Shown: one piece after another, positions 2,044-41,165 of the stretch
Position numbering within the stretch: the first letter of the stretch is position 1
How the letters are laid out: every line of letters starts with the position of its first letter
Assembly (NCBI GenBank): GCA_001004005.1
Contig: LCQF01000023.1
Coordinates: 1 to 53,116, forward strand
Source: Parcubacteria group bacterium GW2011_GWA2_49_9
GTDB lineage: Bacteria > Patescibacteriota > Minisyncoccia > Phycocordibacterales > UBA10002
Direction: 5' to 3'
Length of the DNA stretch: 53,116 bases
Notes under the pieces: model-generated
Told to the model about the DNA's origin: nothing
Database searches by the model: none
Seen by the model: only the letters and a program-made list of their open reading frames with translations
Position numbers and translations under genes: made by a program

Positions 2044-2137
2044 CTAATTCACCTAATTGTCTAATTTCTAATAAAAGGCTAAATAATCAAACTTCTGGGC
2101 TTTATCTTGCTTGTTTCGGTTTTATTAGGTGAATTAG
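2044..2137. repeat. Low-complexity CTAATT-theme inverted repeat in the divergent tyrS/PBP intergenic region
   Basis: ctaattcacctaat (2044-2057) is the exact reverse complement of attaggtgaattag (2124-2137). Further ctaat/attag motifs lie on both sides. Confidence 0.7.
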
Positions 2138-2177
2138 AAATTAGATATTAGAAATTCTTTCTGCTACCATTCTTTCC

Positions 2178-8960: not shown

Positions 8961-9700
8961 ATGTTTGCGATGCTGAAAGTGATTTTTTATGTCCCGCTCT
9001 ACAACGGGCTTATTTTTTTAATCGGGGTCCTTCCCGGGCACTCGGGGGCATAGCGGTCATTCTGTTCACGGTTCTCATTAAACTCCTCCTCTCCCCTCTT
9101 TCACATAAAGCGGCGAAATTTCAACTTGAAATGAAGGCGCACGAAGCTGACCTTAACCGCATTAAGGAACAATTCAAAAACGACAAGCAAGCACAGGGCA
9201 AGGCAATTATGGATTTTTATAGAGAGAAGAAGATTAATCCGTTCGCGGGAATCGCCCCTCTTTTCATACAAATTCCAATCGTTATCGCCCTCTATTATGT
9301 GTTTTATGGCGGAGGTCTTCCGGTAATAGACACAGCTCTTTTATACTCATTTGTCCCTGTGCCAACTCCCGATATGCATCTGTTTGGTGTGAATATACTG
9401 GAAAAGAGTCTCGTTCTCGCCATCCTTGCCGGTGTCGCCCAGTTTTTTCAAGCGCACTTCGCTATGCCCCCCGCTCCGCCGAAGACCAGTACCCCTTCTA
9501 TTGGCAACGACCTCGCCCGAGGGATGCATATGCAAATGAAGTATTTCCTACCGGTATTTATGGCGTTTGTCGCCTACGCCGTGAGTGGAGCAGTTGCACT
9601 TTATTTTATAACCAGTAGTCTGTTTACCATCGCTCAAGAAGTCCTTGTCCGGAGGTCACTTGCGAAGGGGCACAACCATAATGCAAATACCGCGAATTAA
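8961..9700 (+). CDS. yidC: YidC/Oxa1-family membrane insertase, interrupted by a 1-nt frameshift at a G5 run (9044-9048)
   Basis: Frame 0 gives MFAMLKVIFYVPLYNGLIFLIGVLPGHSGA*. Frame 2 continues IAVILFTVLIKLLLSPLSHKAAKFQ...INPFAGIAPLFIQIPIVIALY (ORF 9131..9700). One extra G would fuse them. Confidence 0.8.
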
Positions 9701-9772
9701 GAATGCAAATACCGCGAATCAGAAGGTTCGTATTGGCAGTATTCGCATTCCCTATCCGAAGTATTCGCATTA
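9677..9772. repeat. AATGCGAAT-theme inverted repeat filling the yidC-jag gap
   Basis: cataatgcaaataccgcgaat...gaatgcaaataccgcgaatcag / cgtattggcagtattcgcattc...gtattcgcatta. It also encodes the YidC tail HNHNANTAN. Confidence 0.65.
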
Positions 9773-9778
9773 ACTATT

Positions 9779-10291
9779 ATGGATTCAGAACACATTAAAC
9801 AACTTATTGAAGGACTCTTGAAGCATATGCAGGTCTCGGTGCAGAGCATAGACGTATCCGAGTCGGATGGCCGACAGCGCTTTTCCGTTGTTACTCCCGA
9901 CTCGCACATTCTTATCGGAACTAAAGGGGCGCACCTTTCCGCTCTTAACCATCTCATTAAGAAGATGGTTGCGACCAAAGAAAACGCAAAGAAAGACCCT
10001 TCCGCTTCCCCGCTCTCGTCCGGAGAGGGAGAACGGGAGAAGACGTTTTTCGTTGATGTAAACGGCTATCAAGAAGCCGCGCTTGAGAGTGTCAAAAATG
10101 TAGCCAAAATTATGGGTGACCGCGCCCGTTCGTTCAAGACAAGCGTTGAGCTTGACCCGATGTCTTCATACGAACGAATGGTCATCCACTCTTTCTTTCA
10201 GGACGCAAAAGACGTCAAGACGGAATCGGTTGGAGAAGGAGAGCGGCGCCGAGTGGTCATAAAATACACAGGAGAAGGTTCTAGTTTTTAG
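9779..10291 (+). CDS. jag: Jag/KhpB-type RNA-binding protein (KH + R3H)
   Basis: C-terminal R3H-like LDPMSSYERMVIHSFF. Located after yidC. Contains a short inserted low-complexity segment. Confidence 0.75.
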   Translation: MDSEHIKQLIEGLLKHMQVSVQSIDVSESDGRQRFSVVTPDSHILIGTKGAHLSALNHLIKKMVATKENAKKDPSASPLSSGEGEREKTFFVDVNGYQEAALESVKNVAKIMGDRARSFKTSVELDPMSSYERMVIHSFFQDAKDVKTESVGEGERRRVVIKYTGEGSSF

Positions 10292-10709
10292 GTTCTAGCT
10301 TCTAGTTTGGAGATAAGGGAATAGAGCATCTTCATTACTTCAGTGAGCAACGACTCCACTGCTCCATATGAAAGCTTTGCGGTTTTTGATATTCGTTTTG
10401 CAATTTCTATTTGCGTCTCCAGTTCCGCGGCTGACCCGAGTGCGATGTGGAGAAAGTGGCAAAAATCCTTTTTGGTGCTGCGACAACGACCTTCCGCGAT
10501 GTTTGATGGTATGGAAACAACGGCTCGGCGCATCTGTGAGGTGAGCGCGTATCGTTCTTCATTCGGGAACCCCTCGGTGAGTTCATAAACGAGCACTGAG
10601 AGGTCTATTCCCTTCTGCCACACAATTAAGTCTTTATACGATTTGGCGACAGGCGCATTCATAATCATTTCCCTCTTACTAAAAGCTAGAACCTAAAACC
10701 TAGAAGCTA
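10278..10709. mobile_element. Inverted-repeat-flanked cassette carrying the four-helix-bundle gene (IVS-like)
   Basis: Arms are 10278-10307 (ggttctagtttttaggttctagcttctagttt) and 10679-10709 (ctaaaagctagaacctaaaacctagaagcta). They share the complementary core ttttaggttctagctt. Confidence 0.45.
10288..10668 (-). CDS. Four-helix-bundle protein (23S rRNA intervening-sequence protein family; Avd-like fold)
   Basis: YKDLIVWQKGIDL...EERYALTSQMRRAVVSIPSNIAEG...FLHIALGSAAELETQ matches the hallmark pattern of this family. Confidence 0.8.
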   Translation of the reverse strand: MIMNAPVAKSYKDLIVWQKGIDLSVLVYELTEGFPNEERYALTSQMRRAVVSIPSNIAEGRCRSTKKDFCHFLHIALGSAAELETQIEIAKRISKTAKLSYGAVESLLTEVMKMLYSLISKLEART

Positions 10710-14226: not shown

Positions 14227-14292
14227 ACTCACATTATATAGCAAAACCAACCTATCGGCTGTGCACAGGAAGGAAATGGAGAAGTTTCGTCT

Positions 14293-14413
14293 TATCTCCC
14301 TTACCAAAGGGAGCACTGCGTTCTGACGCAGGAGGGTTGTCTGCCACCGTTTGGGCGAGAGGGGAAACAACCCCCGCCGTATCAGAATACGGCACCCCCT
14401 TTGCTAAGGGGGA
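14293..14413. repeat. GC-rich two-hairpin repeat units (one forward, one reverse)
   Basis: tatctcccttaccaaagggagcactgcgttctgacgcaggagggttgt ... aacaacccccgccgtatcagaatacggcaccccctttgctaagggggat. Confidence 0.75.
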
Positions 14414-14459
14414 TAAAATCCATCGGCATCCATGTTTGTTTCGAGTGATAAGAAATGCT

Positions 14460-14702
14460 ATGCTACGAACTATGACCATCATCACGATACCCAAACATTT
14501 GGCACATAAAGACCTTGTGCTTATTCCGCGGGCGGAATATGAGGAAATGAAGCGAGGATACACCCCACGCGTTTTCAAAGAAGTTGCGATGACCAAAACG
14601 CAAAAACGCGAGCTTGATGTCGCGCGGCGGGATTATGCGCGCGGCGACGTAGTTACCCTTGATGTATTACGACGGGATTTGGAGCGTAGAAATTCGCGGT
14701 AA
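14460..14702 (+). CDS. Putative antitoxin of a RelE/ParE-type TA pair
   Basis: 80 aa (MLRTMTIITIPKHLAHKDLVLIPRAEYEEMK...), overlapping the downstream RelE-like ORF. The upstream part of ORF 14337.. is repeat DNA. Confidence 0.55.
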   Translation: MLRTMTIITIPKHLAHKDLVLIPRAEYEEMKRGYTPRVFKEVAMTKTQKRELDVARRDYARGDVVTLDVLRRDLERRNSR

Positions 14703-14931
14703 AGCGCGTAAAGTGTTGAAGAAAATCCCGGCAAAGAACGCCGAGACCATTTTTGACGTAATTGAAAGTTTCAAAACCGATCCATTTAGCGGCGACATTG
14801 AGAAACTCGGAGGAGAAGTCAACGTATGGAGACGGCGCGTAGGCCCCTATCGGATTTTTTACGAAATCTATCAGCACACGCATTCTGTGTACGTGTATTG
14901 GATTGAACGTCGTGGTTCAAACACCTATTAG
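14662..14931 (+). CDS. RelE/ParE-family toxin
   Basis: WSVEIRGKARKVLKKIPAKNAETIFDVIESFKTDPFSGDIEKL...WRRRVGPYRIFYEI...VYVYWIERRG is a typical RelE/StbE layout. Confidence 0.75.
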   Translation: MYYDGIWSVEIRGKARKVLKKIPAKNAETIFDVIESFKTDPFSGDIEKLGGEVNVWRRRVGPYRIFYEIYQHTHSVYVYWIERRGSNTY

Positions 14932-16033: not shown

Positions 16034-16128
16034 GAAGCTTCTAGCTATTAGGTTTTAGGTTCTAGGACAGGCAAATCAAACGCGAGGACACTTCTTACTA
16101 GAAGCTAGCACCTAGAAGCTGAAAGCTA
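16034..16128. repeat. CTAGAAS-theme intercistronic hairpin (empty, no gene in the loop)
   Basis: gaagcttctagctattaggttttaggttctagg / ctagaagctagcacctagaagctgaaagcta. It spans from the VirB4 stop codon to 9 nt before the next ATG. Confidence 0.7.
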
Positions 16129-17946
16129 CTGTTTGCCTTCCGCCGCCTTCAATTCTTCTTTTGCCGCTTTGATGGAGAGCAGTTGCGACGGGTCGGAGGT
16201 AATAATTTGGTCTTCCGTATACGAGGCGATAACCTTTATGGCGACATGTTTTAGTCCCACGAAGAATAGTCCCTCCCCCACGTCGGATTCCAAAAGAAGA
16301 TATTTTTCTTCATCAGTCAGGTTGAAAATGGTCTGAAGCTTGTCTACCACCGTGGGCGATTGCTTCAAGAGCATTTGCATAGAGGAGTTGGTGAGAATCG
16401 GGAGCCCATATTGGGACTTAAGGAAGTCATCTACGTCTTGTGTGATGGTGGAAAGACCGAGATAGTATTTACGGCCGCGTTTCGCGAGGCCAAGGAGGAA
16501 CGAGGCCGTATCATCCGACTTCATCATCCACCATGCTTCATCAATGACCATCAGACGTTTTTTGAGCTCCTTCCTGATGGAGTTCCAGATAAAGTGCATC
16601 ACGATATACATCGCCGCCGATTTCAGTTCGTCCTCCATATCGCGCAAGGAAAAGACGATAAAGTTCGCGTTGATGTCCACATTGGACGGCTGGTTGATGA
16701 AACCAGACCACGTGCCATGCGTGTATTTTGAAAGGCGTTGCACCAGACTCTCCCCTCCCTGCATACCGGCAAGGACCAGCTCAAAGTCGGAAAGAAGCGG
16801 CGGTTCAATTTTGGAGAAATCGGAATCGGGAGTGATGTCCTTCAGCGCGTAGGTTTCGGTTATCGCGCGGTCTATAATCCCGTCTTCCTCGGCAGTGAGT
16901 CCGCCGAGGAGAATTCGGAACAGCCCCACCAAGTTGATAATGTTGGAGCGAAGCACGTCCGCGGACGATTCGTCTTCCCGAGGAGCCGCGAGTTCAAACG
17001 GATTGATATGATGCTCGGAATTAAGTGAGATATTGAAATACTTTCCTCCTGTGGCCTCGGCAAGAAATTCATATTCCCGCTCGGGGTCAATAACGATAAC
17101 TTCGGTTCCGAACATAAGAGAGCGCAAAATCTCAAGCTTCGTCATATACGATTTTCCCGAGCCACTTTTAGCGAGCGTAATTGAGTTATAGTTCTCTAGA
17201 CTGAAACGGTCAAACAAGACAAGGGAAGAGTTATGGCGGTTGACCCCGTACAAAATACCCTTGTTAGAGGTGAGGTCAAACGAGATAAACGGAAACACGC
17301 TTGAAAGCGGCGATGAATTGAGCTTGTTGTGTACCATAAGCTCGTCGTTCCCCAAAGGCGACGTGCTTCGAAAACCTTGTTCTTGCTGAAACAGCGCAGG
17401 TTTGATGATAACCAGTTTACTTTCCAAAATGGATTTGATTTCATTTTCCGTCTTGTCCAGCTCTTCTTCGGTTGCGGCATAGATAGTGAGATAAATCCCG
17501 ACATCAAACAGCTTTTCCTGCGCCTGCAGGAGGTCGTCGCGAAGCCGCTCCAAGTCCTGGTAGGCCGTTTCAAGCATTGGGTCGCGCACCAGCCCTTTTT
17601 TCTCGCGGTCGGCCATCTGGCTCTGCACCTCGGCGACTTTTTTCTGAAATTGCTTCAGCACTTTCGCGGTGTCCACCGGGTGTACGAAAATACTGATATC
17701 AAACACCTTATCCAGATTGATAATGGGAGCAAACCAACCCTCGGTAAGGTAGCGGGGATATGAAATGACGAAAAAGGTACGAGTGAACTTCCCGCTGACA
17801 TTTAAAGATTTTGGCGCGACCTTAAGCGCCGCGGGAGCGATGACGTCCTGCAGTTCAAGCTGACCCGACTGATAAATCTCCTGCGGCAAGAATTCCGACA
17901 AGTCCTTGTCGTTTTTTTTGGGTTTTAGGAAATCAAATAGCCCCAT
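16126..17946 (-). CDS. virB4: VirB4/TrsE/TraE-family type IV secretion ATPase
   Basis: Walker A LAKSGSGKSY, Walker B RLMVIDEAWWMM, LSTITQDVDDF. N-terminal ISYPRYLTEGWFAPIINLD pattern typical of Gram-positive-type VirB4. Confidence 0.85.
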   Translation of the reverse strand: MGLFDFLKPKKNDKDLSEFLPQEIYQSGQLELQDVIAPAALKVAPKSLNVSGKFTRTFFVISYPRYLTEGWFAPIINLDKVFDISIFVHPVDTAKVLKQFQKKVAEVQSQMADREKKGLVRDPMLETAYQDLERLRDDLLQAQEKLFDVGIYLTIYAATEEELDKTENEIKSILESKLVIIKPALFQQEQGFRSTSPLGNDELMVHNKLNSSPLSSVFPFISFDLTSNKGILYGVNRHNSSLVLFDRFSLENYNSITLAKSGSGKSYMTKLEILRSLMFGTEVIVIDPEREYEFLAEATGGKYFNISLNSEHHINPFELAAPREDESSADVLRSNIINLVGLFRILLGGLTAEEDGIIDRAITETYALKDITPDSDFSKIEPPLLSDFELVLAGMQGGESLVQRLSKYTHGTWSGFINQPSNVDINANFIVFSLRDMEDELKSAAMYIVMHFIWNSIRKELKKRLMVIDEAWWMMKSDDTASFLLGLAKRGRKYYLGLSTITQDVDDFLKSQYGLPILTNSSMQMLLKQSPTVVDKLQTIFNLTDEEKYLLLESDVGEGLFFVGLKHVAIKVIASYTEDQIITSDPSQLLSIKAAKEELKAAEGKQ

Positions 17947-17949
17947 AAT

Positions 17950-18430
17950 AAAGTACCAATCAACTAATCAGAACTAATCTACTAATACCTACGAATCAGA
18001 CCAGACGATTTTGCATTAAAGTTCTCTATCCGCACTATGCGATGAGAACGAACGTAAGTACTACCAAAATTAACCAGAATACCCAGTTTAATTCCTGTGG
18101 CCTGAAGATACCTCTGGGTTTGGACAAAGTCACCACTTGGAATAAAACGCTTGGCTTTCAGTTCAAGGATAATCTTGTCCTCTATAAGAAAGTCAACAAT
18201 GTTATTTGTATCCCCAATCCTGTACTCTCTCTTGTAAATAATGCCCGCCTCCTTTAACTTTTGTTCGAGTAGGTCGGCATATTGTTTTTCCCTTGCAAAT
18301 TTTCCCACCTCATTATGGACTTTATAGCAAAGGCCGACTACATCAAACGAAAGGTCAGGATACAGTAGTCCCACCTCTTTTTTCTTATTTGCAGGTATTT
18401 GTAGATTAGTATTCATTTGCAGATTAGTTT
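17950..18430. mobile_element. Inverted-repeat-flanked cassette carrying GxxExxY-like gene 1 (ACTAATC theme)
   Basis: Arm aactaatctactaatacctacgaatcag (17970-17998) versus the complement of atttgcaggtatttgtagattagta (18388-18412). About 22 of 25 positions match by eye. Confidence 0.45.
17982..18416 (-). CDS. GxxExxY-like PD-(D/E)XK nuclease-superfamily protein
   Basis: Start at MNTNLQ.... LLYPDLSFDVVGLCYKVHNEVGKFAREKQYADLLEQKL...IVDFLIEDKIILELKAKR...LGILVNFG. Confidence 0.75.
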   Translation of the reverse strand: MNTNLQIPANKKKEVGLLYPDLSFDVVGLCYKVHNEVGKFAREKQYADLLEQKLKEAGIIYKREYRIGDTNNIVDFLIEDKIILELKAKRFIPSGDFVQTQRYLQATGIKLGILVNFGSTYVRSHRIVRIENFNAKSSGLIRRY

Positions 18431-19080
18431 TAACTTTCTTGCACGGTCTTCTCGGTTTCCCCCGGGTTGAACAATTGATAAAAGACATCAACAACCTCTT
18501 CGGTTCCAAGTTGCGCCACCCGAACACCGGTCCGGATGAGTCCTTGTTCCACGACGCTGACGCGCTGTTCAAGCTGGGTGCGGTTTTCCTCAAAGCCCTT
18601 CGGCCCCTTTTCGGGAGAAGTATTCTTTGCGCCAAATCCCTCTTTTAGTTTCATCGCCACCCCTCCCCCACTTGCGGAAAGTTGGACGATGGCGGGAGAA
18701 TACGGAACGACGATAAAGAATGTTTTATTCATAATATTCGTTCCCTCCGTAAATTTTGTGACGAAGCCGATATATTCACGCGTCTGGAGCTTCAGTAATT
18801 CATTTTTCTGATTCTTCGCGCGTTCTTCCAGAATCGCGATGTATGGTTTGATATCAAACCGTCTGGACTGCACAATAATTTCCACGGAGAAATCAAGCGA
18901 ATTGAGGAAGTTTTGAAACTGCGAAATAATCGCCGCCTGGTTATCCTCGGATTTCAAGGCGAAATTTATGGACGACGCCATAAGTATGGCGCGTAATCCG
19001 CCGTCTTTCAGGATGACAATGCCATCCCGTATTTCACGGATTTTGACGAACTCCTGCGAAGCCTTTGATGCTATGGCCAT
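18430..19080 (-). CDS. Stand-alone VirB4-N-terminal-domain-like protein
   Basis: IREIRDGIVILKDGGLRAILMASSINFALKSEDNQAAIISQFQNFLNSLDFSVEIIVQSRRFD resembles the N-terminal domain of Gram-positive VirB4 homologues (recalled pattern, not searched). Confidence 0.5.
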   Translation of the reverse strand: MAIASKASQEFVKIREIRDGIVILKDGGLRAILMASSINFALKSEDNQAAIISQFQNFLNSLDFSVEIIVQSRRFDIKPYIAILEERAKNQKNELLKLQTREYIGFVTKFTEGTNIMNKTFFIVVPYSPAIVQLSASGGGVAMKLKEGFGAKNTSPEKGPKGFEENRTQLEQRVSVVEQGLIRTGVRVAQLGTEEVVDVFYQLFNPGETEKTVQES

Positions 19081-19110
19081 ATCATTCGAACGCTACAACT
19101 GTTTATAACT

Positions 19111-19578
19111 CATAATGCGAATGCCGCAAATACTGAATGCAAATACTGCGAATTAAGAAACACGTGAATTCAATACCCGTTTTGGATAGAGATTTTGTTG
19201 TTGAAAGTTTACGATAAGACCAAGTTTGAGATTGAGAACCGAAAGGTATCGTTGCATCTGATAGTAATCCTCTCGAGTGACGTGATGTTTGGCCTTTAAG
19301 TCAACAACTATTATACCTTCAATAACGAAATCAGGCACATTGCGCCACGCTTTTTCCCCTACAAACGATGGGGGAAGGCGTACTTCACGCGTATACGATA
19401 AGTTTGCTTTTTTTAGTCCCTCTTCAAAGGCATCGGCGTAGGATTGTTCCGTTCGAAAACGGCCCAAGTCATTGTGGACTTTAAAACAGAGTCCGTTGAT
19501 TTTGTACGATAGTTCTGGATACACCACGCCGTCGTTATTTGCAGCATTCGCATTCTTCATTTGCAGTATTTGCATTAT
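19111..19578. mobile_element. Inverted-repeat-flanked cassette carrying GxxExxY-like gene 2 (AATGCGAAT theme)
   Basis: cataatgcgaatgccgcaaatactgaatgcaaatactgcgaatta (19111-19155) versus the complement of ttatttgcagcattcgcattcttcatttgcagtatttgcattat (19535-19578). About 35 of 44 positions match by eye. Confidence 0.5.
19153..19560 (-). CDS. GxxExxY-like PD-(D/E)XK nuclease-superfamily protein (paralogue of 17982..18416)
   Basis: VVYPELSYKINGLCFKVHNDLGRFRTEQSYADAFEEGL...VPDFVIEGIIVVDLKAKH...LGLIVNF. Start is uncertain (19560 or 19575). Confidence 0.75.
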   Translation of the reverse strand: MKNANAANNDGVVYPELSYKINGLCFKVHNDLGRFRTEQSYADAFEEGLKKANLSYTREVRLPPSFVGEKAWRNVPDFVIEGIIVVDLKAKHHVTREDYYQMQRYLSVLNLKLGLIVNFQQQNLYPKRVLNSRVS

Positions 19579-19618
19579 ATTTATCTTTTGACGTTTTGAT
19601 TTATATCCAGTGCCCACG

Positions 19619-19882
19619 TTAGGTCAAACGATTGGAAAGGACATAGGCAATCGCGGCCTGCATCATAAAGATGAAAGGTTTTCCGTTCGGTTTGTAGAAT
19701 GCCAGTGCGGCCGCGAGGCCGGCAATAGGGGCGATAATGAGTACCGCGAGATAAAAAGGCAGGAAATTATACGCGATATATCCCATGCCTATTCCACCCA
19801 CGATATACACAAATTGCTTGATGCTGAACGGCCCAAGTATCTTGTCCTCTATGTTGATGAATTGTGGAACCTGGAACCTCAT
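19619..19882 (-). CDS. PrgI-family (VirB3-like) small membrane protein
   Basis: 87 aa from MRFQVPQFINIEDKILGPFSIKQFVYIVGG..., with two TM helices. The upstream 67 aa in the ORF track are repeat DNA. Confidence 0.65.
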   Translation of the reverse strand: MRFQVPQFINIEDKILGPFSIKQFVYIVGGIGMGYIAYNFLPFYLAVLIIAPIAGLAAALAFYKPNGKPFIFMMQAAIAYVLSNRLT

Positions 19883-19997
19883 ATATATAATGCGAATACT
19901 ACTAATACCGAATGCGAATACCACGAATGAAACTCCCCAAAAGAGACTTTCTGATTTGCAGTATTCGCATTTTCCATTCGCGGTATTTGCATTATGG
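19883..19997. repeat. AATGCGAAT-theme intercistronic hairpin (empty)
   Basis: ataatgcgaatactactaataccgaatgcgaatacc ... gcagtattcgcattttccattcgcggtatttgcattatgg. It starts 2 nt after the upstream stop and ends 4 nt before the PrgI ATG. Confidence 0.7.
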
Positions 19998-21857
19998 TTA
20001 CTGCAAGGGTTCGCGGTACGGGTCAGTTGAGTAACGCTTTTCTTCCCTCGGAAGCGACATAGGAGCCTGTAGTTTTTGGTCAAGGAAATCCTCTTCCTCT
20101 TCCCCGTTCATTTGAGGGGAGTCCGCCGGCTGGCGGAGAGGTGGGGTATTTGATTCGCTCTGCGGTCGGGTTTTATCCCCATCCCCATCCCCCTTAGCAA
20201 AGGGGGCTGCCTTGGGGGGTTGTCTGGTAAAGGGGGTGCTCCCGTCTGCGGGAGCGGGGGTTGTAATACCCCTCCTGCCGGAGACGGCAGTGCTCCCCTT
20301 ATTAGGGGAGATAGCCTTCCCTTCGGGGGGTGGAATGTTTGGAATTGCCGGCTCAAGTTTATTAATCGGATATTTCGGAAGAGGCGAAGACGACGACCCG
20401 ATAGTGTTTATGGAAGGCTTCCATCCGGTAGGCCCTATGGGGGAAGCTTTTGACTGATAGCCTTTAGCTGTTAGAGAAGAGCTTGGGAGAGTGGGGGCTG
20501 CGATTCTCGGCACAGGGACGATACCTTTAGGATTTTCAATATCCCGAAGTACGTCCGCTCGGCTTAAGGGTTCTTCTTCTCCCCCTCCCCTATCCCCCTT
20601 ACCAAAGGGGGTGCCTCCGTCCGCGGAGGCGGGGGTTGTTTTTCCCATACCAAAGGGGGTGCCAGACAACCCTCCTGCCGAAGACGGCAGTGCTCCCTTT
20701 AGTAAGGGAGATGCGGCGAGACCGGGGGTTGTCCCCACTTGTTTTTTCAGGATATTCTCCCCCATATTCCACTTCGCTCCGGCGGAGTACGGAGTAGAAG
20801 AAGCTGATAGTGGAATAGTCGTAGACTGCTTATAGCTTTTAGCTTCTAGTTTATTCTGACTAGAACCTAAAACCTGAAACCTAGCACCTGTTTCTGGGCT
20901 AGAACCTTGAACCTGAAAGCTAGAAGCTGGCTTCGGCACCACGCTCGGTTTCGGAATTGAAAATGAAGTTCCCGCTTCCAGCCGTGGACCAACTCCTACC
21001 GGAGGAGGCTGCACCACTTCCGCATGCATGCTGCGGAGCGATTCGCGCACCTTCACGAGAATCTGCGAACTCACATCGCGGGCGATTTCTCTCGCTCGCT
21101 CCTCGGGAACGCGGAGGCGGTCGGCAAGGTTCTTGATGAAGTCGGCAGGGTGCGTGAGTCCGAGGAGGACAAGCCCCGTCTCGCTCGCGAGCGCGGCCAT
21201 CTGGTCCACGTGCAAGAGGTACTTCTTGGCGATGGCTTGAATGGCATTCGCGGTATCTACCGAAGAAACCGATTGACGGAGGCCCATCGGCAGGTCTTCA
21301 AACGCATTCCGGAGTTCTTCCTCCGAGTACTTTGTTCCCGCGGCGATACGAATAAGCGCCCGTATGTGATTAGGTTCTAGCTTCAAGCTGTTAGCTTCTA
21401 GTTTATTCTGACTAGAGCCTTGAACCTGAAACCTAGCACCTGTCTCTTGGCTAGAACCTGAAACCTGAAAGCTAGAAGCTGGTTTTATCGGCTCCGGCAC
21501 TCTACCCTCTTTAATCGGATACCCCGCCTGTTTCAAAATCGGAAGAACCGGGTCAAATAGTTTCGTTTGGAGTTCGTAGGCAATCGTGGGGATTTTCGGC
21601 ACATTGTCTTCCTCAATGTTTTTGTCTTGTTGTATGAACGCGACGAGCGTATCCGGTGAGGCCTCCCCTTTCAGAACACGAAGTACTCCTTCACAGAGCG
21701 CTCCGGTTTCAGCGAAGACAAACCCCTGTTCGGCGGCAATAGTCGTTGGGAGAATATGTATTTCCGCCACCCCTTTATCAAGGAGCGCGCTGAATACTTT
21801 CTCCGGAAGCGATTCCAGAAAGAGTGATAGTCTTTCTCTTGCGTCTTGAGGATTCAT
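19998..21857 (-). CDS. Hypothetical protein: ~300-aa structured N-terminal part plus a long tail built largely from repeat-element insertions
   Basis: The ORF stays open through two ~90-bp CTAGAAS modules and many GC-rich units (peptides PLLKGALPSSAGG, GTPFGKGD, APFAKGDGDGD). Ends ...DPYREPLQ. Confidence 0.6.
   Translation of the reverse strand: MNPQDARERLSLFLESLPEKVFSALLDKGVAEIHILPTTIAAEQGFVFAETGALCEGVLRVLKGEASPDTLVAFIQQDKNIEEDNVPKIPTIAYELQTKLFDPVLPILKQAGYPIKEGRVPEPIKPASSFQVSGSSQETGARFQVQGSSQNKLEANSLKLEPNHIRALIRIAAGTKYSEEELRNAFEDLPMGLRQSVSSVDTANAIQAIAKKYLLHVDQMAALASETGLVLLGLTHPADFIKNLADRLRVPEERAREIARDVSSQILVKVRESLRSMHAEVVQPPPVGVGPRLEAGTSFSIPKPSVVPKPASSFQVQGSSPETGARFQVLGSSQNKLEAKSYKQSTTIPLSASSTPYSAGAKWNMGENILKKQVGTTPGLAASPLLKGALPSSAGGLSGTPFGMGKTTPASADGGTPFGKGDRGGGEEEPLSRADVLRDIENPKGIVPVPRIAAPTLPSSSLTAKGYQSKASPIGPTGWKPSINTIGSSSSPLPKYPINKLEPAIPNIPPPEGKAISPNKGSTAVSGRRGITTPAPADGSTPFTRQPPKAAPFAKGDGDGDKTRPQSESNTPPLRQPADSPQMNGEEEEDFLDQKLQAPMSLPREEKRYSTDPYREPLQ
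20841..20930. repeat. ~90-bp CTAGAAS module with AGCTTCTAG/CTAGAAGCT termini (copy 1, in-frame in ORF)
   Basis: Near-identical to 21393-21482 by eye. Encodes PASSFQVQGSSPETGARFQVLGSSQNKLEA. Confidence 0.75.
21393..21482. repeat. ~90-bp CTAGAAS module (copy 2, in-frame in ORF)
   Basis: Same termini and same internal order as 20841-20930. Encodes PASSFQVSGSSQETGARFQVQGSSQNKLEA. Confidence 0.75.
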
Positions 21858-29307: not shown

Positions 29308-29368
29308 GTTAGTATAGCAGAGGAATGGGGATAATCGGTGGAAAAACAGTGGATAGTGCTTTCTTTTT

Positions 29369-29770
29369 TATCTCCCTTACTAAAGGGAGTCACGAATTCT
29401 GATTCGGGGAGGGTTGTTATCCCCCTTAGTAAAGTGAAATAGTCGTAGACTAGGGGTGACCAGCCGTAGTTTGCGGCAAACTACGGCTGGTCGGGGGTTG
29501 TTTACACCCCTCCTCCGACGTGACGTCGGAGTGCTCCCTTTGCTAAGGGAGATTCGGCGGAGGCGGGTGTTGTATCTCCCTTACTAAATGGAGTCCCCGA
29601 GTCTGCGAGGGGGAGGGTTGTTATCCCCCTAGTCTACAGTCTACGACTGCAGGCTGACTACTTCGTTACAAAGGGGGTGACCAGCCGTAGTTTGCGGCAA
29701 ACTACGGCTGGTCGGGGGTTGTATCTCCCTTAGAAAAGGGAGTACCGCCGTCTTCGGTGGGGAGGGTTGT
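29369..29770. repeat. Tandem array of ~7 GC-rich two-hairpin units (mostly forward orientation)
   Basis: Constant parts are tatc[ct]cccttaNtaaaggg[ag]g and gg[ga]gggttgt. They alternate with variable palindromic stems (cacgaattctgattcgg; accagccgtagtttgcggcaaactacggctggt, seen twice; ccccgagtctgcgagggg; accgccgtcttcggtgg). Confidence 0.85.
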
Positions 29771-30118
29771 TCTTTTCTTTATCCACAACTCAATCTCTCG
29801 CAACACACTGTCCAAATTATTTCTTACCTCGCCTTCCGTAAACCGAAGAACAGTAACCCCCAGCTTTTCCAATAGTTGTTGTCGCCTTACGTCCTTTTCA
29901 ATTTTTGCATCATGCGTTATGCCATCTATTTCAATAGCAAGGTTGAGCGGGGCGCAATAAAAATCAACGATATAAGATAGAATCGGCTTTTGCCGCGAGA
30001 ACGGATAGCCAATCTTTTTACCCTTTAGTTCTTTCCACAGCAAGACCTCTCCGAGAGTGCCATTTTTTCGGAGGCCTTGAGATAATTTCTTGAGCTCTTG
30101 GTTGTAGTATATTTTCAT
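29702..30118 (-). CDS. DUF559 (Vsr-like) endonuclease-domain protein
   Basis: LWKELKGKKIGYPFSRQKPILSYIVDFYCAPLNLAIEIDGITHD...LGVTVLRFTEGEV. The C-terminal tail TEDGGTPFSKGDTTPDQP is read from repeat units. Confidence 0.8.
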   Translation of the reverse strand: MKIYYNQELKKLSQGLRKNGTLGEVLLWKELKGKKIGYPFSRQKPILSYIVDFYCAPLNLAIEIDGITHDAKIEKDVRRQQLLEKLGVTVLRFTEGEVRNNLDSVLREIELWIKKRTTLPTEDGGTPFSKGDTTPDQP

Positions 30119-30122
30119 AGGG

Positions 30123-30379
30123 TTATCTCCCCTAGTAAGGGGAGCACTGCCGTCTTCGGCAGGAGGGGTGTGGCAAAGGGAGAGGTTAAGACAACCCCCG
30201 CCGTATCAGAATACGGCACCCCCTTTATTAAGGGGGATACAACCCCCGACCAGCCGTAGTTTGCGGCAAACTACGGCTGGGCAACCCCTTTTCTAAGGGA
30301 GATACAACCCCCCCTCGCCGACGAGAGCACCTCATTTGCTGAACAACCCCCCAAGGCAGCCCCCTTTGTTAAGGGGGAT
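30123..30379. repeat. Array of GC-rich two-hairpin units (mostly reverse orientation), mirror of 29369-29770
   Basis: acaacccccgccgtatcagaatacggcaccccctttattaagggggat; acaacccccgaccagccgtagtttgcggcaaactacggctgggcaaccccttttctaagggagat; acaaccccccaaggcagcccccttt gttaagggggat. Confidence 0.85.
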
Positions 30380-31390: not shown

Positions 31391-32425
31391 TTACCGCGGA
31401 AACGAGAAAATACTTCCCGGTTCGCCTTGGCTGAAGCCCACACCTTCGTTGTATAAGAAGTCGGAAACGGCCACAAACGCCTTGGCAAGGGCAAGAGAAC
31501 TCTCACTGTACTCGGTTATATCGGGACCGGAAAGATAAGCTCCTGCTTTTGTGCCCGAAATAGTCTGAATACTTCTCGCGTAATTTTGATAGGCACGAAC
31601 AAGTGCCGAATGTACCGAAGAAGCCTTTTCTGGCGACACCACCGCCGCAATGTCCAGAGCAATCTGGTCGTACTTTTTCGCGAGTTTTCCGAAGCCTTGA
31701 AGTAGAGCCTCGGTCATTTTCGTATTTCCCGACGCACTGTTCCAAAAAGCAAGCTCGGCGTCCGAGTCGGTCGCGGCCGTTTGTATGGGGGCACCGAGCG
31801 CGTTCCCGAAACTATGCAGAGGATTTTCAGCCTGTGCCTGTTCCCTCCCCTCCGTTTCTAAGGAGGGGACTTGAGGGGTGGTGGTGTCCCCCTTAGAAAA
31901 GGGGGTGCCTCCGTCTGCGGAGGCGGGGGTTGTAGGAGTTGTAGTTTCTTGTGTTAAAAGGGGAACAACCCTCCCCGCCGAAGACGGCGGTACTCCCTTT
32001 AGTAAGGGAGTAACAACCCCCGTCCTCGCCGACTCGGACACCCCCTTTTCTAAGGGGGATTGCAGAACCATTACGGGAGTTTCCAGAGAATCATTCGGTC
32101 CTCCCTTTCTCGGATTTCTATGTGCCACCACTTCCGCTCCATCCGGCGTTCCGTCGCTGTCGGTGTCGGGTTTTTCGGGGTCCGTACCCCAAAGGGCTTC
32201 TTCCCAATCCGGAAGTCCATCGCTGTCTATGTCAAACGTGGAAAACGCTGGTTGTATCCCCCTTAGTAAAGTGGAATAGTCGTAGACTAGGGGTGCCGTA
32301 TTCCGATACGGCGGGGGTTGTTCGGTTCGACTCTTTGACAAAAACCAAATACCGAGTGCGACAAGAAAAAGGATTCCAATGAGAAGCATAACCTCGGTTA
32401 TGAGAGTACCGATAGATTTTTTCAT
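31391..32425 (-). CDS. Membrane-anchored TSP3-like repeat protein (paralogue) carrying ~70 aa of in-frame repeat-unit insertion
   Basis: DIDSDGLPDWEEALWGTDPEKPDTDSDGTPDGAE. Inserted segment PLEKGVSESARTGVVTPLLKGVPPSSAGRVVPLL...ASADGGTPFSKGD. Confidence 0.65.
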   Translation of the reverse strand: MKKSIGTLITEVMLLIGILFLVALGIWFLSKSRTEQPPPYRNTAPLVYDYSTLLRGIQPAFSTFDIDSDGLPDWEEALWGTDPEKPDTDSDGTPDGAEVVAHRNPRKGGPNDSLETPVMVLQSPLEKGVSESARTGVVTPLLKGVPPSSAGRVVPLLTQETTTPTTPASADGGTPFSKGDTTTPQVPSLETEGREQAQAENPLHSFGNALGAPIQTAATDSDAELAFWNSASGNTKMTEALLQGFGKLAKKYDQIALDIAAVVSPEKASSVHSALVRAYQNYARSIQTISGTKAGAYLSGPDITEYSESSLALAKAFVAVSDFLYNEGVGFSQGEPGSIFSFPR

Positions 32426-32443
32426 GTGTTACCATTGTAGTAT

Positions 32444-32920
32444 ATGTGCGCCTCTTTCGGAAAGAAATTACTAATTTTTTTGGCGATATGTTTACTCGCC
32501 ACTCCTCTTTCCGCATCCGCGATTTTTGACTTTGGCGGGCGGGTGACCAACTTTCCAGGGCTTCCCGGAGGCATTATGAGCGCGTTCGCGCTTCCCGCGT
32601 TTCCACCTCCGGGGGTGTTTAGTTTCTGGTATCCGGTGGGGCCGGGCTGTCTCAACGGCGTACAAGAAGTAAATCAGATACAGGCGGTCGGCGTGCCACA
32701 GCCCCCCATTCTCCTTCAGTTTGTAGGGCAATATACCTTTATGATGGGCCCCGCGATGCATCCGGGCCAGCAGATTCTCGGGAAATATGCTCCTATACCG
32801 ATGGTGTGCATGGCAAACTTCGTCTCTTGGATATATGTCGGATTCTCTCTGGTACCCGTGGTTATCCCGCTCCCGTTCTTCTTCGCCCCGCTCATCATCT
32901 ACAACGGGTCAACCATTTGA
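32444..32920 (+). CDS. Small secreted Pro/Gly-rich protein, function unknown
   Basis: Signal peptide KKLLIFLAICLLATPLSASA. Hydrophobic C-terminus. Confidence 0.5.
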   Translation: MCASFGKKLLIFLAICLLATPLSASAIFDFGGRVTNFPGLPGGIMSAFALPAFPPPGVFSFWYPVGPGCLNGVQEVNQIQAVGVPQPPILLQFVGQYTFMMGPAMHPGQQILGKYAPIPMVCMANFVSWIYVGFSLVPVVIPLPFFFAPLIIYNGSTI

Positions 32921-32943
32921 GATGAATATACGAAAATATGTAT

Positions 32944-32979
32944 CCCGTAGTGAGAAATTCTGATTTCTCTACTACTGGG
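32944..32979. repeat. Short CCCGTAGTGA...CTACTACTGGG hairpin
   Basis: cccgtagtgagaaattctgatttctctactactggg. Confidence 0.7.
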
Positions 32980-33004
32980 ACGAATTATACAAATATACGA
33001 ATGG

Positions 33005-33892
33005 CTACGAATAAGAAAGAAACAAGAAGAGGTGTTTCCAATCCGCGAGAGACAGATTTTCCGGACGCGCTTTCTCCGCGATGTTGCACTCTTTGAGCGT
33101 TGCGGAAGTAACCCCTACATTTGACGCGAGAAGTTTCCTCGGATGAGCGAATCCTTTTTTGAGGAAAGCAAAGAACTCCTGTTCGTTCATTCTCCCTTTC
33201 CTAAAGGGAGTACCGCCTTCCGAGGCGGGGAGGGATTTAAATCCTCCGGCCTCGCCGACTCGGCCACCTCCTTTTGCAAAGGAGGAATAAGAGTCGGTGC
33301 CCGTAAAAAATTCTTTTGAGATATGCTCAATCGCGATAATCGCGGAATCCACGTTCGGTGGCGGAGAAAAGGCTCCCGCCTTTACGGTACCGATATACTT
33401 CGGCGTCCCGTAGGCTTTGACACTTATGGAGAGAATGCTTTCTTTTTTATCGCTGGCGACTATTCTCCGTGCCACTTCTTTTTGTAAGAGCAGGACCATT
33501 GTGTGTGGCGGACACTCTGTCCCTTGGAGAAATTTCCGCAAAAATTGTCCCGTAATGTAATACGGCAAATTCGCCACGATTTTGTAGGGCTTCTTTGAAA
33601 ATTGAAAATTGAAAATTGAAAATTCCAATATGTCGGCATGGATGAGCTCAAACTCTCCTGAAGCGATTTCGGCTGCAAACTTCTGTTCCAACACGGGAAT
33701 AAGCCGGTCGTCTTTTTCAACCGCGATGACTTTTCCCGCTTGCTTGAGCAGTAATTCCGTAAGGACTCCCTCCCCCGGGCCTACCTCAAGCACGGTGTCG
33801 GCAGGCAGAAGCTGTGCCGCCCCCACTATTTTCTGGAGCGCGCCTGCGGAGCGAAGAAAATGTTGACCGAGCGTTTTTTTAGCAAAAACCAT
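33005..33892 (-). CDS. rsmA: 16S rRNA (adenine1518/1519-N6)-dimethyltransferase RsmA/KsgA, with two in-frame repeat insertions
   Basis: KKTLGQHFL, VLEVGPGEGVLT, KIVANLPYYIT. Insertions are gaaaatt x4 (33597-33624) and GC-rich units (33191-33285, SFAKGGGRVGEAGGFKSLPASEGGTPFRKG). Confidence 0.88.
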   Translation of the reverse strand: MVFAKKTLGQHFLRSAGALQKIVGAAQLLPADTVLEVGPGEGVLTELLLKQAGKVIAVEKDDRLIPVLEQKFAAEIASGEFELIHADILEFSIFNFQFSKKPYKIVANLPYYITGQFLRKFLQGTECPPHTMVLLLQKEVARRIVASDKKESILSISVKAYGTPKYIGTVKAGAFSPPPNVDSAIIAIEHISKEFFTGTDSYSSFAKGGGRVGEAGGFKSLPASEGGTPFRKGRMNEQEFFAFLKKGFAHPRKLLASNVGVTSATLKECNIAEKARPENLSLADWKHLFLFLSYS

Positions 33893-33993
33893 AATGCGAA
33901 TCTACGAATAGCTATGCGAATACTGCGAATGCCGATGAAGTCGGAATCTTATTCGTGGTATTCGCATTCTTCATTTGCGGTATTCGCATTATG
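33893..33993. repeat. AATGCGAAT-theme ~100-bp imperfect palindrome exactly filling the uvrD-stop to rsmA-start gap
   Basis: Starts cataatgcgaat... and ends ...attcgcattatg. The rsmA ATG itself pairs with the distal CAT. Confidence 0.8.
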
Positions 33994-36123
33994 TTAATCA
34001 AAAAAGATTATCTTCCCTCCCCCTTCCAGGTAATTTTCAGCCTGCAGGAATTCTTCGTCAATGTCAAAGATGAATTCCGACGGCACCGTTACTTGTCGTG
34101 AGCCGAAAATGGTTCGGACCCCGGCGTATGTCAGGAAGACTTTCTTCTTTGCTCTGGTGACTGCCACATAAAACAGGCGGCGCTCCTCCTCGGCCGCCCC
34201 TTCGTCAAGCGTTTCTCCCATACGTTCGTGCGGGAACAGCCCTTCTTCAAGGCCGGAAATAAATACATAGGTAAATTCAAGTCCTTTTGACGCATGCACC
34301 GTCATAAGCCGTACCGCGGGTTTCTCCTCTTGGAGCTCGTCCTGGTCGCTCTGAAGCGCTACGTCGGAAAGGAATTGATCTACTGCCGCAGTTCTGTCAT
34401 TCCCCTGCTCCCGCCCCTCTCCCTTTCGGGAGCTCCCCTCAAGCAGGGGAGCTGGGGAATCCAGTTCTTTTTGAGTCCCACTCTGGCCCCCCGCATAGTC
34501 TACGACTACTCCGCTCTGCTCCGTCGCGAGGATGACAGACGGCGTGGTTTCAGGGGTCACTGCGTCGTACCTCGTCGCGAAGGTTACGAGTTCCTTGATA
34601 TTTTCCAGACGTTCCTCGTCTTCCGAACCTCCTTTTTTGAGCTCCGCCTCAAGTCCGCTCGCGCTCACAATCCACTTAATAGCCTCCGAAAGCGGCAGAC
34701 TGGAAAGTCTTTGGCGGAATTCCGCTAGCAGTTTTTTAAACGTAGCAAGTTTTTCGCGCATGGCGGGCGGAAGCTCCTTTTCTTTCCCCGCAAAGATTTT
34801 GAGAAGCGTCACCTTGCCAATACCACGCGGAGGAACGTTGATAATCCGTCGCACGTCACCGATACTCTCGGGGTTTTCAGCGGCACGGACATAGGAAAGG
34901 ACATCTTTCACCTCTCTGCGTTCAAAAAAGCGCACTCCAAGAACCTGATACGGCACTTCCTCTCGGAGAAAAGCTTCTTCAAGCGCGCGGCTTTGGAAGT
35001 TCGCCCTGAACAGGACGGCAATAGCGGAGGGGGATGCGCCCTCGGCGATAAGCTGTTTGGAACGCTGTGCGATAAAGGAGGCTTCCTGCACTTCGTCATA
35101 GGCGGTAAACAGTCCCACCTTCTCCCCCTCCCCGTTTTTCGTGAAGAGCGTCTTCTCTCTCCGCATTTTATTTTTCTCAATAATGCGGTTTGCTACCGTG
35201 AGAATGGTCTGGGTAGAGCGGTAATTTTCTTCAAGCAGTACTATCTTTGACTTCGGATAGTCCTTTTCAAAATTCAGAATGTTTTTGATACTCGCTCCCC
35301 GCCAGCTGTAGATGTTCTGGTCAATGTCGCCGACTACCGCGATATTCTTCTCCGCGTCGGCAAGCGATTTCGCGATGATGTATTGCACGTGATTCGTGTC
35401 CTGATACTCGTCAATATGGATATAGCGCCAGCGTTTCTGATAGTGCGCACGCACCATCTCATCTTTCTGCAATAAGACGGCCGTTTTTAACAAAAGGTCG
35501 TCAAAATCAAGCGCCTTTTCTTTGCGGAGAATCGCCTCATACTTTTCCCAGATATCCGCGACTATCGCCGGATAGTAGTCTCCTTCGGAGCGCGCCTTAA
35601 ACTCTTCGCAGGTCACCATCTTCCCTTTCTCACGGCTAATTGACCCGAGAATTTTCCCCGGCTCAAACTGTTTCGGGTCAAGGTCCGTTTCCCTAATCGC
35701 CTCTTTGAGGGCACGTATAGAATCACTACGGTCAAAAATAGTAAACCGTTTGGAAAGACCGAGCCGCTGGCTGTTTTCTCGCAGAATATATACGCCAAGC
35801 GAGTGAAACGTACCGAGCCAAGGGAAGCTGATAGCTTTTAGGTTCTGACTTCTAGGATGTTCCATTCCCTCGGTTTGGCCTAGAAGCTGAAAGCTAGAAC
35901 CTAAAAGCTGGCGGACTCTCTCGCGCATCTCCTTCGCCGCTTTATTCGTAAAAGTGATGGCAAGTATTGACTCTGGAGCGACCCCCTGCTTAATGAGGTG
36001 AAGAATTCGGTGCGTGATTACCCGTGTCTTGCCCGCTCCCGCTCCGGCGACAATAAGAAGGGGGCCCTCGGTATGCTCCACGGCTTCCCGTTGCCGCGCA
36101 TTGAGTCCGAGAAGATAGTCCAT
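33994..36123 (-). CDS. pcrA: UvrD/PcrA-family ATP-dependent DNA helicase, with in-frame repeat insertions
   Basis: Start MDYLLGLNARQREAV. Walker A AGAGAGKTRV. DEYQDTN. VHASKGLEF. Insertions at 35827-35912 (CTAGAAS hairpin) and ~34397-34515 (MITE half-copy plus TAGTCTACGACTA). Confidence 0.9.
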   Translation of the reverse strand: MDYLLGLNARQREAVEHTEGPLLIVAGAGAGKTRVITHRILHLIKQGVAPESILAITFTNKAAKEMRERVRQLLGSSFQLLGQTEGMEHPRSQNLKAISFPWLGTFHSLGVYILRENSQRLGLSKRFTIFDRSDSIRALKEAIRETDLDPKQFEPGKILGSISREKGKMVTCEEFKARSEGDYYPAIVADIWEKYEAILRKEKALDFDDLLLKTAVLLQKDEMVRAHYQKRWRYIHIDEYQDTNHVQYIIAKSLADAEKNIAVVGDIDQNIYSWRGASIKNILNFEKDYPKSKIVLLEENYRSTQTILTVANRIIEKNKMRREKTLFTKNGEGEKVGLFTAYDEVQEASFIAQRSKQLIAEGASPSAIAVLFRANFQSRALEEAFLREEVPYQVLGVRFFERREVKDVLSYVRAAENPESIGDVRRIINVPPRGIGKVTLLKIFAGKEKELPPAMREKLATFKKLLAEFRQRLSSLPLSEAIKWIVSASGLEAELKKGGSEDEERLENIKELVTFATRYDAVTPETTPSVILATEQSGVVVDYAGGQSGTQKELDSPAPLLEGSSRKGEGREQGNDRTAAVDQFLSDVALQSDQDELQEEKPAVRLMTVHASKGLEFTYVFISGLEEGLFPHERMGETLDEGAAEEERRLFYVAVTRAKKKVFLTYAGVRTIFGSRQVTVPSEFIFDIDEEFLQAENYLEGGGKIIFFD

Positions 36124-41065: not shown

Positions 41066-41165
41066 TACTAATCAACTAATTTGGGTACTAATCTACAAAT
41101 GCTTACTAATCCGAAGAGTCTTATTCGTAAGCATTAGCAGATTCGTCTCATTCGCAGATTGGTAC
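41066..41165. repeat. ACTAATC-theme ~100-bp imperfect palindrome filling the dksA-stop to comM-start gap
   Basis: gtactaatcaactaatttgggtactaatctacaaatgcttactaatccgaag / cttattcgtaagcattagcagattcgtctcattcgcagattggtac. Confidence 0.75.

Follow-up and report, generated by a model that had tools for sequence, protein, structure and literature searches.

Among the known systems closest to the elements considered here are the intervening sequences (IVS) of 23S rRNA genes that contain an open reading frame (ORF). The IVS of Coxiella is 428–444 nt long, has a 28-bp terminal-repeat stem, carries in its loop an ORF for the four-helix-bundle protein S23p, with tandem heptamers before the start codon, and is excised by RNase III (PMC4990558). 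Its origin is debated (transposon remnant versus mobile element), and the origin and mobility of rRNA IVS, as well as the function of the S23p ORF, are unexplained (PMC4990558). A survey of rRNA insertions in the Candidate Phyla Radiation (CPR) contains 22 PF05635 ORFs (PMC11270868). In mRNAs of Neisseria, RNase III binds to Correia elements and either cleaves or protects them (PMC2649163). The present analysis concerns two cassettes, each with a gene for a GxxExxY-type PD-(D/E)XK nuclease (n1 and n2), located in a type IV secretion system (T4SS) operon of Parcubacteria group bacterium GW2011_GWA2_49_9. The window, i.e., the whole stretch of DNA analysed, is the complete 53,116-nt contig UY50_C0023 from a groundwater metagenome. 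With slightly better than even confidence, the nuclease genes are interpreted below as the cargo of selfish, mobile palindromic cassettes with iteron-built arms, which resemble IVS but reside in mRNA operons. The cassette family is large and apparently undescribed: the literature on GxxExxY, PDDEXK_3, 23S_rRNA_IVP and intervening sequence protein yielded no earlier account of such an architecture outside rRNA.

Each nuclease gene is bracketed by a long imperfect inverted repeat, as had been proposed in a sequence-only reading of the window. The repeat search paired positions 17955–18000 with 18383–18428 around n1 (46 nt, 76% complementary) and 19112–19158 with 19532–19578 around n2 (47 nt, 77% complementary). 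Gapped arm-alignment scores were 37 for n1 and 41 for n2, compared with a mean of 16.1, a 99th percentile of 24 and a maximum of 31 for 1500 random placements in related DNA. The same reading had placed each gene in the loop of a 40–50-bp stem and suggested folding as a check. In minimum-free-energy folds of the sense RNA, the arms indeed close as the outermost stem (z = -4.7 for n1 and -3.8 for n2) and none of 100 shuffled sequences was as stable; the energies of the arm-to-arm duplexes are -38.9 (n1) and -44.4 kcal/mol (n2). The low complexity of the arms and their complementarity of just 76–77% could raise the suspicion of chance pairing or of an assembly artefact. This explanation is considered refuted, since the scores and folds lie far outside the null, 71 of 77 relatives show the same architecture (see below), and independent ENA and Logan assemblies reproduce the same arrangement, which rules out misassembly. 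One detail of the earlier proposal has to be corrected: the ACTAATC and AATGCGAAT motifs, regarded as separate themes of the two repeats, are both arrays of a C-N-A-A-T iteron and are not independent.

According to profile searches, n1 and n2 match PF13366 (PDDEXK_3) with 72 and 84.6 bits (cut-off 22) and TIGR04256 (GxxExxY) with 70.9 and 80.4 bits (cut-off 35), in agreement with the family assignment that had been proposed for checking. Among 60 homologous sequences, D82 and K94 are invariant and D/E92 is nearly invariant. The AlphaFold2 model of the nuclease has a mean pLDDT (predicted local distance difference test) of 89. Its best structural matches in the PDB, found with Foldseek, are PD-(D/E)XK enzymes, with only the top match at E <= 0.001 and with TM-scores not exceeding 0.52; LHK/lambda exonuclease and Cas4 come first, and Hjc and tRNA-splicing endonuclease are weaker. 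Judging by family scores, catalytic residues and predicted fold, n1 and n2 are intact enzymes. A sequence search against solved structures gave no match for the nuclease, PADLOC defence models gave none either, and no homologues were found in a phage collection.

All genes around the two cassettes are located on the minus strand, in the transcription order 619-aa ORF (21857–19998), PrgI-family gene, n2, VirB4N, n1 and VirB4C, where VirB4N and VirB4C denote the N- and C-terminal parts of VirB4 (Table 1). The n1 element fills the VirB4N–VirB4C spacer, which reads TAA-a-[474 nt]-actttatt-ATG, so that 1 nt is left on the upstream side and 8 nt on the downstream side. For n2, the arms are 34 nt past the PrgI stop codon and 31 nt short of the VirB4N start. 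The n1 arms encode the first ~14 and the last ~6 codons of the ORF, which has an in-frame alternative GTG start at ~18374; an alternative GTG start of n2 is at ~19527. In the n2 orthologues of two related loci (L167 and L168), the ORF begins just past the 5′ arm, and residues 1–14 of n2 are disordered in the AlphaFold2 model; the arm-encoded N-terminus is therefore probably incidental. The annotated or longest-ORF N-termini (MQILQMKNANAANNDG and MNTNLQIPANKKKE; 19527–19575 and 18374–18416) are translated 5′ arms, and the low-complexity N-termini of GxxExxY proteins probably reflect a start codon over-extended into the repeat.

The structure of the arms was compared across the family using a metagenome scan with the GxxExxY alignment, which gave 80 loci (40–64% identity) with 77 testable genes and 56 non-redundant elements. 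Inverted repeats scoring at least 24 flank 71 of the 77 genes (median 38, null mean 17). An arm contains 3–5 C-N-A-A-T iterons (3.7 on average) spaced by 8–10 nt, ~15-fold above background. Complementarity between the two arms is 99–100% in the iteron core, 49% at N and 79% in the spacers. That the core does not vary while N is free and mostly mismatched argues for recognition of a specific sequence, with a protein as the simplest candidate, and not just for selection for pairing. In the stems of n2 and of its L167 and L168 orthologues, register shifts occur between iterons. Among the 56 elements, neighbouring genes are co-oriented in 40 of 42 cases upstream and 44 of 46 downstream; the 5′ arm usually begins a few nucleotides past the upstream stop codon, and the downstream ATG usually follows the 3′ arm by 1–9 nt. 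The arm termini ATAATG...CATTATG, seen in the hairpin at 33889–33994 and in many loci in L083–L162, often themselves provide the stop or start codon. It follows that the arms often contribute the upstream TAA stop and the downstream ATG, which would lie opposite each other at the stem base. No clear direct duplication of a target site was seen in the flanks, which are just 1–9 nt long and AT-rich, with the ATAATG/CATTATG termini lying within the inverted repeat. Outside the CPR, GxxExxY genes flanked by inverted repeats were found in replicons of Treponema saccharophilum, Bernardetia and Prevotella nigrescens.

Orthologous operons were compared in 80 Paceibacterota loci, with one genome per species, in which VirB4C is 75–82% identical and the order PrgI–VirB4N–VirB4C is conserved; the distribution of gaps comprises 82 loci, the window's own genome being counted twice. 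The VirB4N–VirB4C gap does not exceed 28 nt in 62 of the 82 loci, which are empty (stop-to-ATG distance mostly 1–9 nt where read directly). Another 15 loci have gaps of 48–171 nt, many of them occupied by hairpins of low complexity; in L048, for instance, the arms are 54 nt long and consist of ATACGAA repeats. The five gaps of 449–502 nt belong to the window's own genome (twice) and to L011, L019 and L078, which carry a four-helix-bundle gene in cassettes with differing arm sequences. As for the PrgI–VirB4N interval, it holds a GxxExxY cassette in L004 and four-helix-bundle cassettes in L012, L027, L078 and L082. The presence of different cassettes and arms at the same junction in different species requires independent insertions. 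Inserted genes and operon have the same orientation in all 13 cases in the T4SS loci, and flanking repeats above the 99th percentile of the null accompany at least 14 of the 16 genes of the GxxExxY or four-helix-bundle type, the window's three included. Gain and loss at orthologous sites are shown here, as is the arms-plus-ORF unit with its iterons. The suggestion of a self-contained, possibly mobile cassette, made from the window alone, is strongly supported by the filled, hairpin-only and empty sites and by the constancy of the arms-plus-ORF unit in the 71 of 77 relatives from other contexts.

A benefit to the host could be considered instead. The hairpins would then be retained RNA or DNA structures that punctuate operons (mRNA stability, processing, translational coupling), and the ORFs would be domesticated, e.g., for defence or repair. 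The location of hairpins exactly at stop/start junctions fits such a role, as do the upstream position of the 5′-type arm in the n2 family (4/4, see below) and the retention of n2 at the same site in related genomes. However, 62 of 82 VirB4N–VirB4C junctions work without a hairpin, occupancy is sporadic, differing arm classes are found at one junction, arm sequences vary between genomes, and PADLOC detects no defence family; we consider this role improbable.

The closest homologues of n2 (73–77% identity) are carried by L167 and L168 at the same PrgI–VirB4N site, which indicates vertical inheritance at that depth. In L167 (GCA_038058305.1, 2125–6387), a closer relative than the loci above, four cassettes are present in one T4SS operon, in the order four-helix-bundle, GxxExxY, four-helix-bundle, four-helix-bundle. 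L168 (GCA_038057695.1, 1860–3556) contains a composite of 5′ arm, loop and 3′ arm, followed by the nuclease ORF and a second 3′ arm. Throughout the T4SS loci, each of the 13 inserted genes is found on the upstream side of VirB4C, the 6 kb downstream of it being free of them, which suggests that the region upstream of VirB4C is an insertion hot spot.

In addition, at least five gene-less C-N-A-A-T hairpins of ~94–108 nt are present in the 53 kb of the window, four of which can be assigned to two arm families (Table 1). In an arm-by-arm comparison, the n2 arms grouped with the hairpins at 9679, 19887 and 33885 (scores 31–61) and the n1 arms with the hairpin at 41055 (scores 27–47), cross-family scores being 10–27; the last two hairpins are given in Table 1 as 33889..33994 and 41068..41162. 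An arm often resembles an arm of another element more closely than its own partner, and two distinct ends, a 5′-type and a 3′-type, therefore seem to exist in each element. In the n2 family, the 5′-type end is upstream relative to transcription of the flanking genes in 4 of 4 elements, a small sample in which replication direction may be a confounding factor. The hairpins have features of Correia elements and other transposable elements of the miniature inverted-repeat type (MITEs), namely, terminal inverted repeats, small size and several related copies in one genome. According to a strict criterion, two filled and four solo C-N-A-A-T elements occur in the 53 kb of the window; the same criterion finds one solo and no filled element in 929 kb of the other T4SS loci, where the GxxExxY cassette of L004 scores below it.

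Families composed of a gene-bearing master and solo copies, such as those of the window, recall the REPIN/RAYT type of system; RAYT genes flanked by inverted repetitive extragenic palindromic (REP) sequences are the known precedent. By analogy, the nuclease could be a single-copy, vertically inherited host gene that disperses or maintains gene-less hairpins and is itself immobile, and the inheritance of n2 at the same site in relatives would agree with this. The analogy appears quite improbable, given that the fold is PD-(D/E)XK and not that of an HUH tyrosine transposase, that two paralogues lie within 1.2 kb, that many different junctions are occupied in the 56 non-redundant metagenomic contexts, and that one junction is filled by differing cassette types across species.

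Table 1. Coordinates of cassette components, gene-less hairpins and host genes in the 53,116-nt window.
Feature	Position	Strand	Evidence
n1, GxxExxY / PD-(D/E)XK nuclease ORF, 144 aa	17982..18416	-	PF13366, TIGR04256
5′ arm of n1 cassette, five C-N-A-A-T iterons (sense strand), begins 1 nt past VirB4N stop	18383..18428	-	repeat search, fold
3′ arm of n1 cassette, ends 8 nt short of VirB4C ATG	17955..18000	-	repeat search, fold
n2, GxxExxY / PD-(D/E)XK nuclease ORF, 140 aa, UY50_C0023G0020	19153..19575	-	PF13366, TIGR04256
5′ arm of n2 cassette, four C-N-A-A-T iterons	19532..19584	-	repeat search, fold, arm comparison
3′ arm of n2 cassette, overlaps n2 stop codon, ends 31 nt short of VirB4N ATG	19112..19158	-	repeat search, fold
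Gene-less hairpin, n2 arm family, 42-nt arms, 25-nt loop; between stop of ORF 19998–21857 and PrgI ATG (19882)	19887..19995	-	repeat search, fold
Gene-less hairpin, n2 arm family; between YidC-like and Jag-like genes	9679..9772	+	arm comparison
Gene-less hairpin, n2 arm family; ATAATG / CATTATG termini appear to give upstream stop and downstream start	33889..33994	-	arm comparison, sequence reading
Gene-less hairpin, n1 arm family; fills the junction of two genes on the minus strand	41068..41162	-	arm comparison
Gene-less CTAAT-type hairpin, third sub-family; divergent intergenic region	2044..2151	.	arm comparison
Sister cassette: inverted repeat of 31 nt with 90% complementarity and arms of the AGCTTCTAG type, around 126-aa 23S_rRNA_IVP (PF05635) four-helix-bundle ORF (10288–10668)	10276..10708	-	repeat search, profile match
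VirB4C, C-terminal ATPase part, 606 aa, conju_CD1110 positions 173–733	16126..17946	-	NCBIfam match
VirB4N, N-terminal part, 216 aa, TrsD/TraC-like	18430..19080	-	separate ORF in relatives too
PrgI-family gene, 87 aa counted from ATG at 19882	19619..19882	-	profile match

The four-helix-bundle cassette of the window (10276–10708) shares its architecture with the nuclease cassettes and belongs to another arm class. In cassettes of this kind, arm class tracks protein clade: L012a and L082 have common AACCAACAAC arms and are reciprocal best hits, and the same is true of the pair L027 and L078b. The 23S_rRNA_IVP cassettes are interpreted as a sister lineage with arm classes of their own.

Gene-less hairpins of the four-helix-bundle arm class also occur in frame inside ORFs, at 21372–21480 and ~20899–20990 in ORF 19998–21857 and at 35826–35909 in ORF 33994–36123, and their translation reads ASSFQVxGSSxETGARFQV. 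In L021, the orthologue of the 619-aa ORF (19998–21857) has just 208 aa. The in-frame hairpins resemble Rickettsia palindromic elements, or they may result from gene fusion via stop-less hairpins.

The sequence-only reading had likened the two loci to ORF-containing 23S rRNA IVS, and the size, terminal-repeat stem and loop ORF of the Coxiella IVS do correspond to those of the cassettes (PMC4990558). The occurrence of GxxExxY proteins in rRNA IVS, which it had also assumed, was not confirmed: neither 'PDDEXK' nor 'PF13366' appears in the supplement of the CPR rRNA-insertion survey (PMC11270868). Rfam finds only three tRNAs in the window, and no rRNA was found in 18 related loci. No excess of promoter-like sites was found in the region, which together with the strict co-orientation is consistent with co-transcription with the host operon.

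A purely RNA-level IVS is conceivable, in which RNase III would cut the stem out of the polycistronic RNA, the nuclease would be a passenger, and the element would spread by recombination or horizontal transfer. This would account for the size and layout shared with the RNase III-excised Coxiella IVS, for the 40–47-bp stems predicted in sense RNA, for the strict co-orientation with host genes and for the IVS-type protein PF05635 in identical cassettes, and the binding of RNase III by Correia elements in Neisseria mRNAs offers a parallel (PMC2649163). Against it, a sense-strand wobble excess was not found among the stem mismatches of the 56 elements (G-U 59, A-C 64, other 246, with 1920 Watson–Crick pairs); an asymmetry in a smaller T4SS set (G-U 24 versus A-C 13) was gone in the 56-element set. 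Sense and antisense stem energies are similar, with no consistent difference and hence no sense-strand advantage. The iteron N is free to mismatch beside its invariant core, which argues for sequence recognition rather than pairing; cleavage would sever the operon mRNA between coupled genes; related hairpins stand in frame inside ORFs; and the cognate solo hairpins of each nuclease would be left unexplained. On this evidence the purely RNA-level explanation is unlikely, while the wobble, stem-energy and in-frame hairpin results neither support nor exclude RNase III cleavage as such.

In the favoured interpretation of selfish mobile cassettes, the cassette (~430–520 bp) behaves as one unit made up of a 5′ arm, an ORF and, as reverse complement of the first arm, a 3′ arm, with iterons approximately one helical turn apart, and would be transcribed with the host operon, having no promoter of its own. 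The PD-(D/E)XK nuclease would drive mobility by binding the iterons and supplying DNA cleavage for copying or transposition. The ORF-less hairpins would be deletion derivatives, possibly moved in trans like MITEs. The long stem would rejoin the upstream stop and the downstream start and so neutralise the insertion, which would be made tolerable either by RNase III excision, as in rRNA IVS, or by retained translational coupling.

Several points weigh against this interpretation. The four-helix-bundle cassettes share the architecture without any nuclease, so the ORF need not be a mobility enzyme. The structural neighbours are generic PD-(D/E)XK enzymes, and the model therefore does not distinguish a DNA from an RNA substrate. 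PF13366 is a family without known transposition chemistry, its function being given as 'Unknown' (PMC3424549). The same-site n2 genes in relatives speak for vertical inheritance there and not for frequent jumping, and the short AT-rich flanks show no clear target-site duplication. An RNA-level signature is lacking as well, in view of the G-U and A-C counts and the similar energies of the two strands. Finally, the association of solo hairpins with the nuclease is based on partial genomes.

A broader proposal can be made only tentatively and is rather doubtful at present: GxxExxY and 23S_rRNA_IVP proteins might mark an unrecognised class of autonomous, iteron-armed palindromic mobile elements at gene junctions, harmless because the stem rejoins the flanks, and 23S/16S rRNA IVS would be their rRNA-resident special case. 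If true, such a class would explain the origin and spread of IVS, unclear since their discovery in 1990. The locus is a tractable model in which the same kind of cassette is found in mRNA operons with either of two protein families. It offers defined iterons, filled, hairpin-only and empty alleles of one junction across ~80 species, and cognate gene-less copies; testable predictions are that the nuclease binds the iterons, that the stem is cleaved and that translation is coupled across it. For annotation, low-complexity N-termini and some 'fused' CPR ORFs are probably translated hairpin arms.

As for the host genes, the 216-aa protein corresponds to positions 2–118 and the 606-aa protein to positions 173–733 of the CD1110-type VirB4 model of NCBIfam, which indicates that VirB4 is split. 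The same N/C split recurs in the 80 orthologous Paceibacterota loci and resembles the TrsD/TrsE arrangement of Gram-positive conjugation systems. A stop-then-ATG VirB4N/VirB4C junction was read directly in 63 insert-free related operons; the split is therefore ancestral, and cassette insertion is ruled out as its cause. A small gene pair downstream of the T4SS genes (14337–14931), one member of which has a weak ParE-toxin Pfam match in the database gene calls, is a possible toxin-antitoxin module. Long inverted repeats at 29366–30337 and 31887–33234 are formed by another, G+C-rich family of repeats (ACAACCCCCG...GGGGGTTGT, CCCTTTAGTAAGGG); its copies also lie inside ORFs around 20100–20800 and 14250–14600 and are translated as TPFGKGD / SPLLKG motifs in several ORFs.

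Among known systems, the cassettes can be compared with the ORF-containing 23S rRNA IVS of Coxiella burnetii and Leptospira, which are ~430–470 nt long, have a long terminal inverted-repeat stem, one small ORF in the loop and short tandem repeats in the 5′ arm region, and are sporadically distributed in phylogeny; both the window and related operons also contain identical cassettes that encode the IVS protein family PF05635 itself. The nuclease cassettes differ in lying between VirB4C, VirB4N and PrgI of an mRNA operon and not in helix 25 or 45 of 23S rRNA, in encoding a PF13366 nuclease instead of S23p / 23S_rRNA_IVP, and in having longer (~46 nt), imperfect arms built of C-N-A-A-T iterons. 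RNase III excision, a feature of the IVS, is hypothetical for the cassettes.

Rickettsia palindromic elements show that palindromes are tolerated in transcribed and even coding sequence, to which the four-helix-bundle-type hairpins in ORFs 19998–21857 and 33994–36123 can be compared; the n1 and n2 cassettes, unlike them, are intergenic and gene-bearing and have no sequence relationship to them. Free-standing homing endonuclease genes of phage operons are likewise small nuclease ORFs between conserved co-oriented genes with presence/absence polymorphism. They differ from the cassettes, which have long flanking inverted repeats, occupy many junctions instead of one cognate target and have no matches in the phage collection. 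Correia elements and other MITEs (ERIC etc.) are short, bounded by inverted repeats, present in many copies next to or between genes, co-transcribed, folded into hairpins and possible RNase III substrates (PMC2649163, PMC10969869), and the gene-less hairpins of the window look like members of this class. In contrast to them, the hairpins have a gene-carrying partner with matching arms on the same contig, their arms are built as arrays of iterons, and insertion is into stop/start spacers without a clear target-site duplication.

REPtrons, in which a RAYT gene is flanked by inverted REP sequences and accompanied by dispersed REPINs, share with the cassettes a small nuclease-type gene between inverted repeat copies, the occurrence of the repeat as gene-less hairpins, and cognate pairing of the two. 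The ORFs of the cassettes match only PF13366, i.e., a PD-(D/E)XK fold and not HUH/Y1, and here it is the gene-bearing unit itself that varies between species and occupies many sites.

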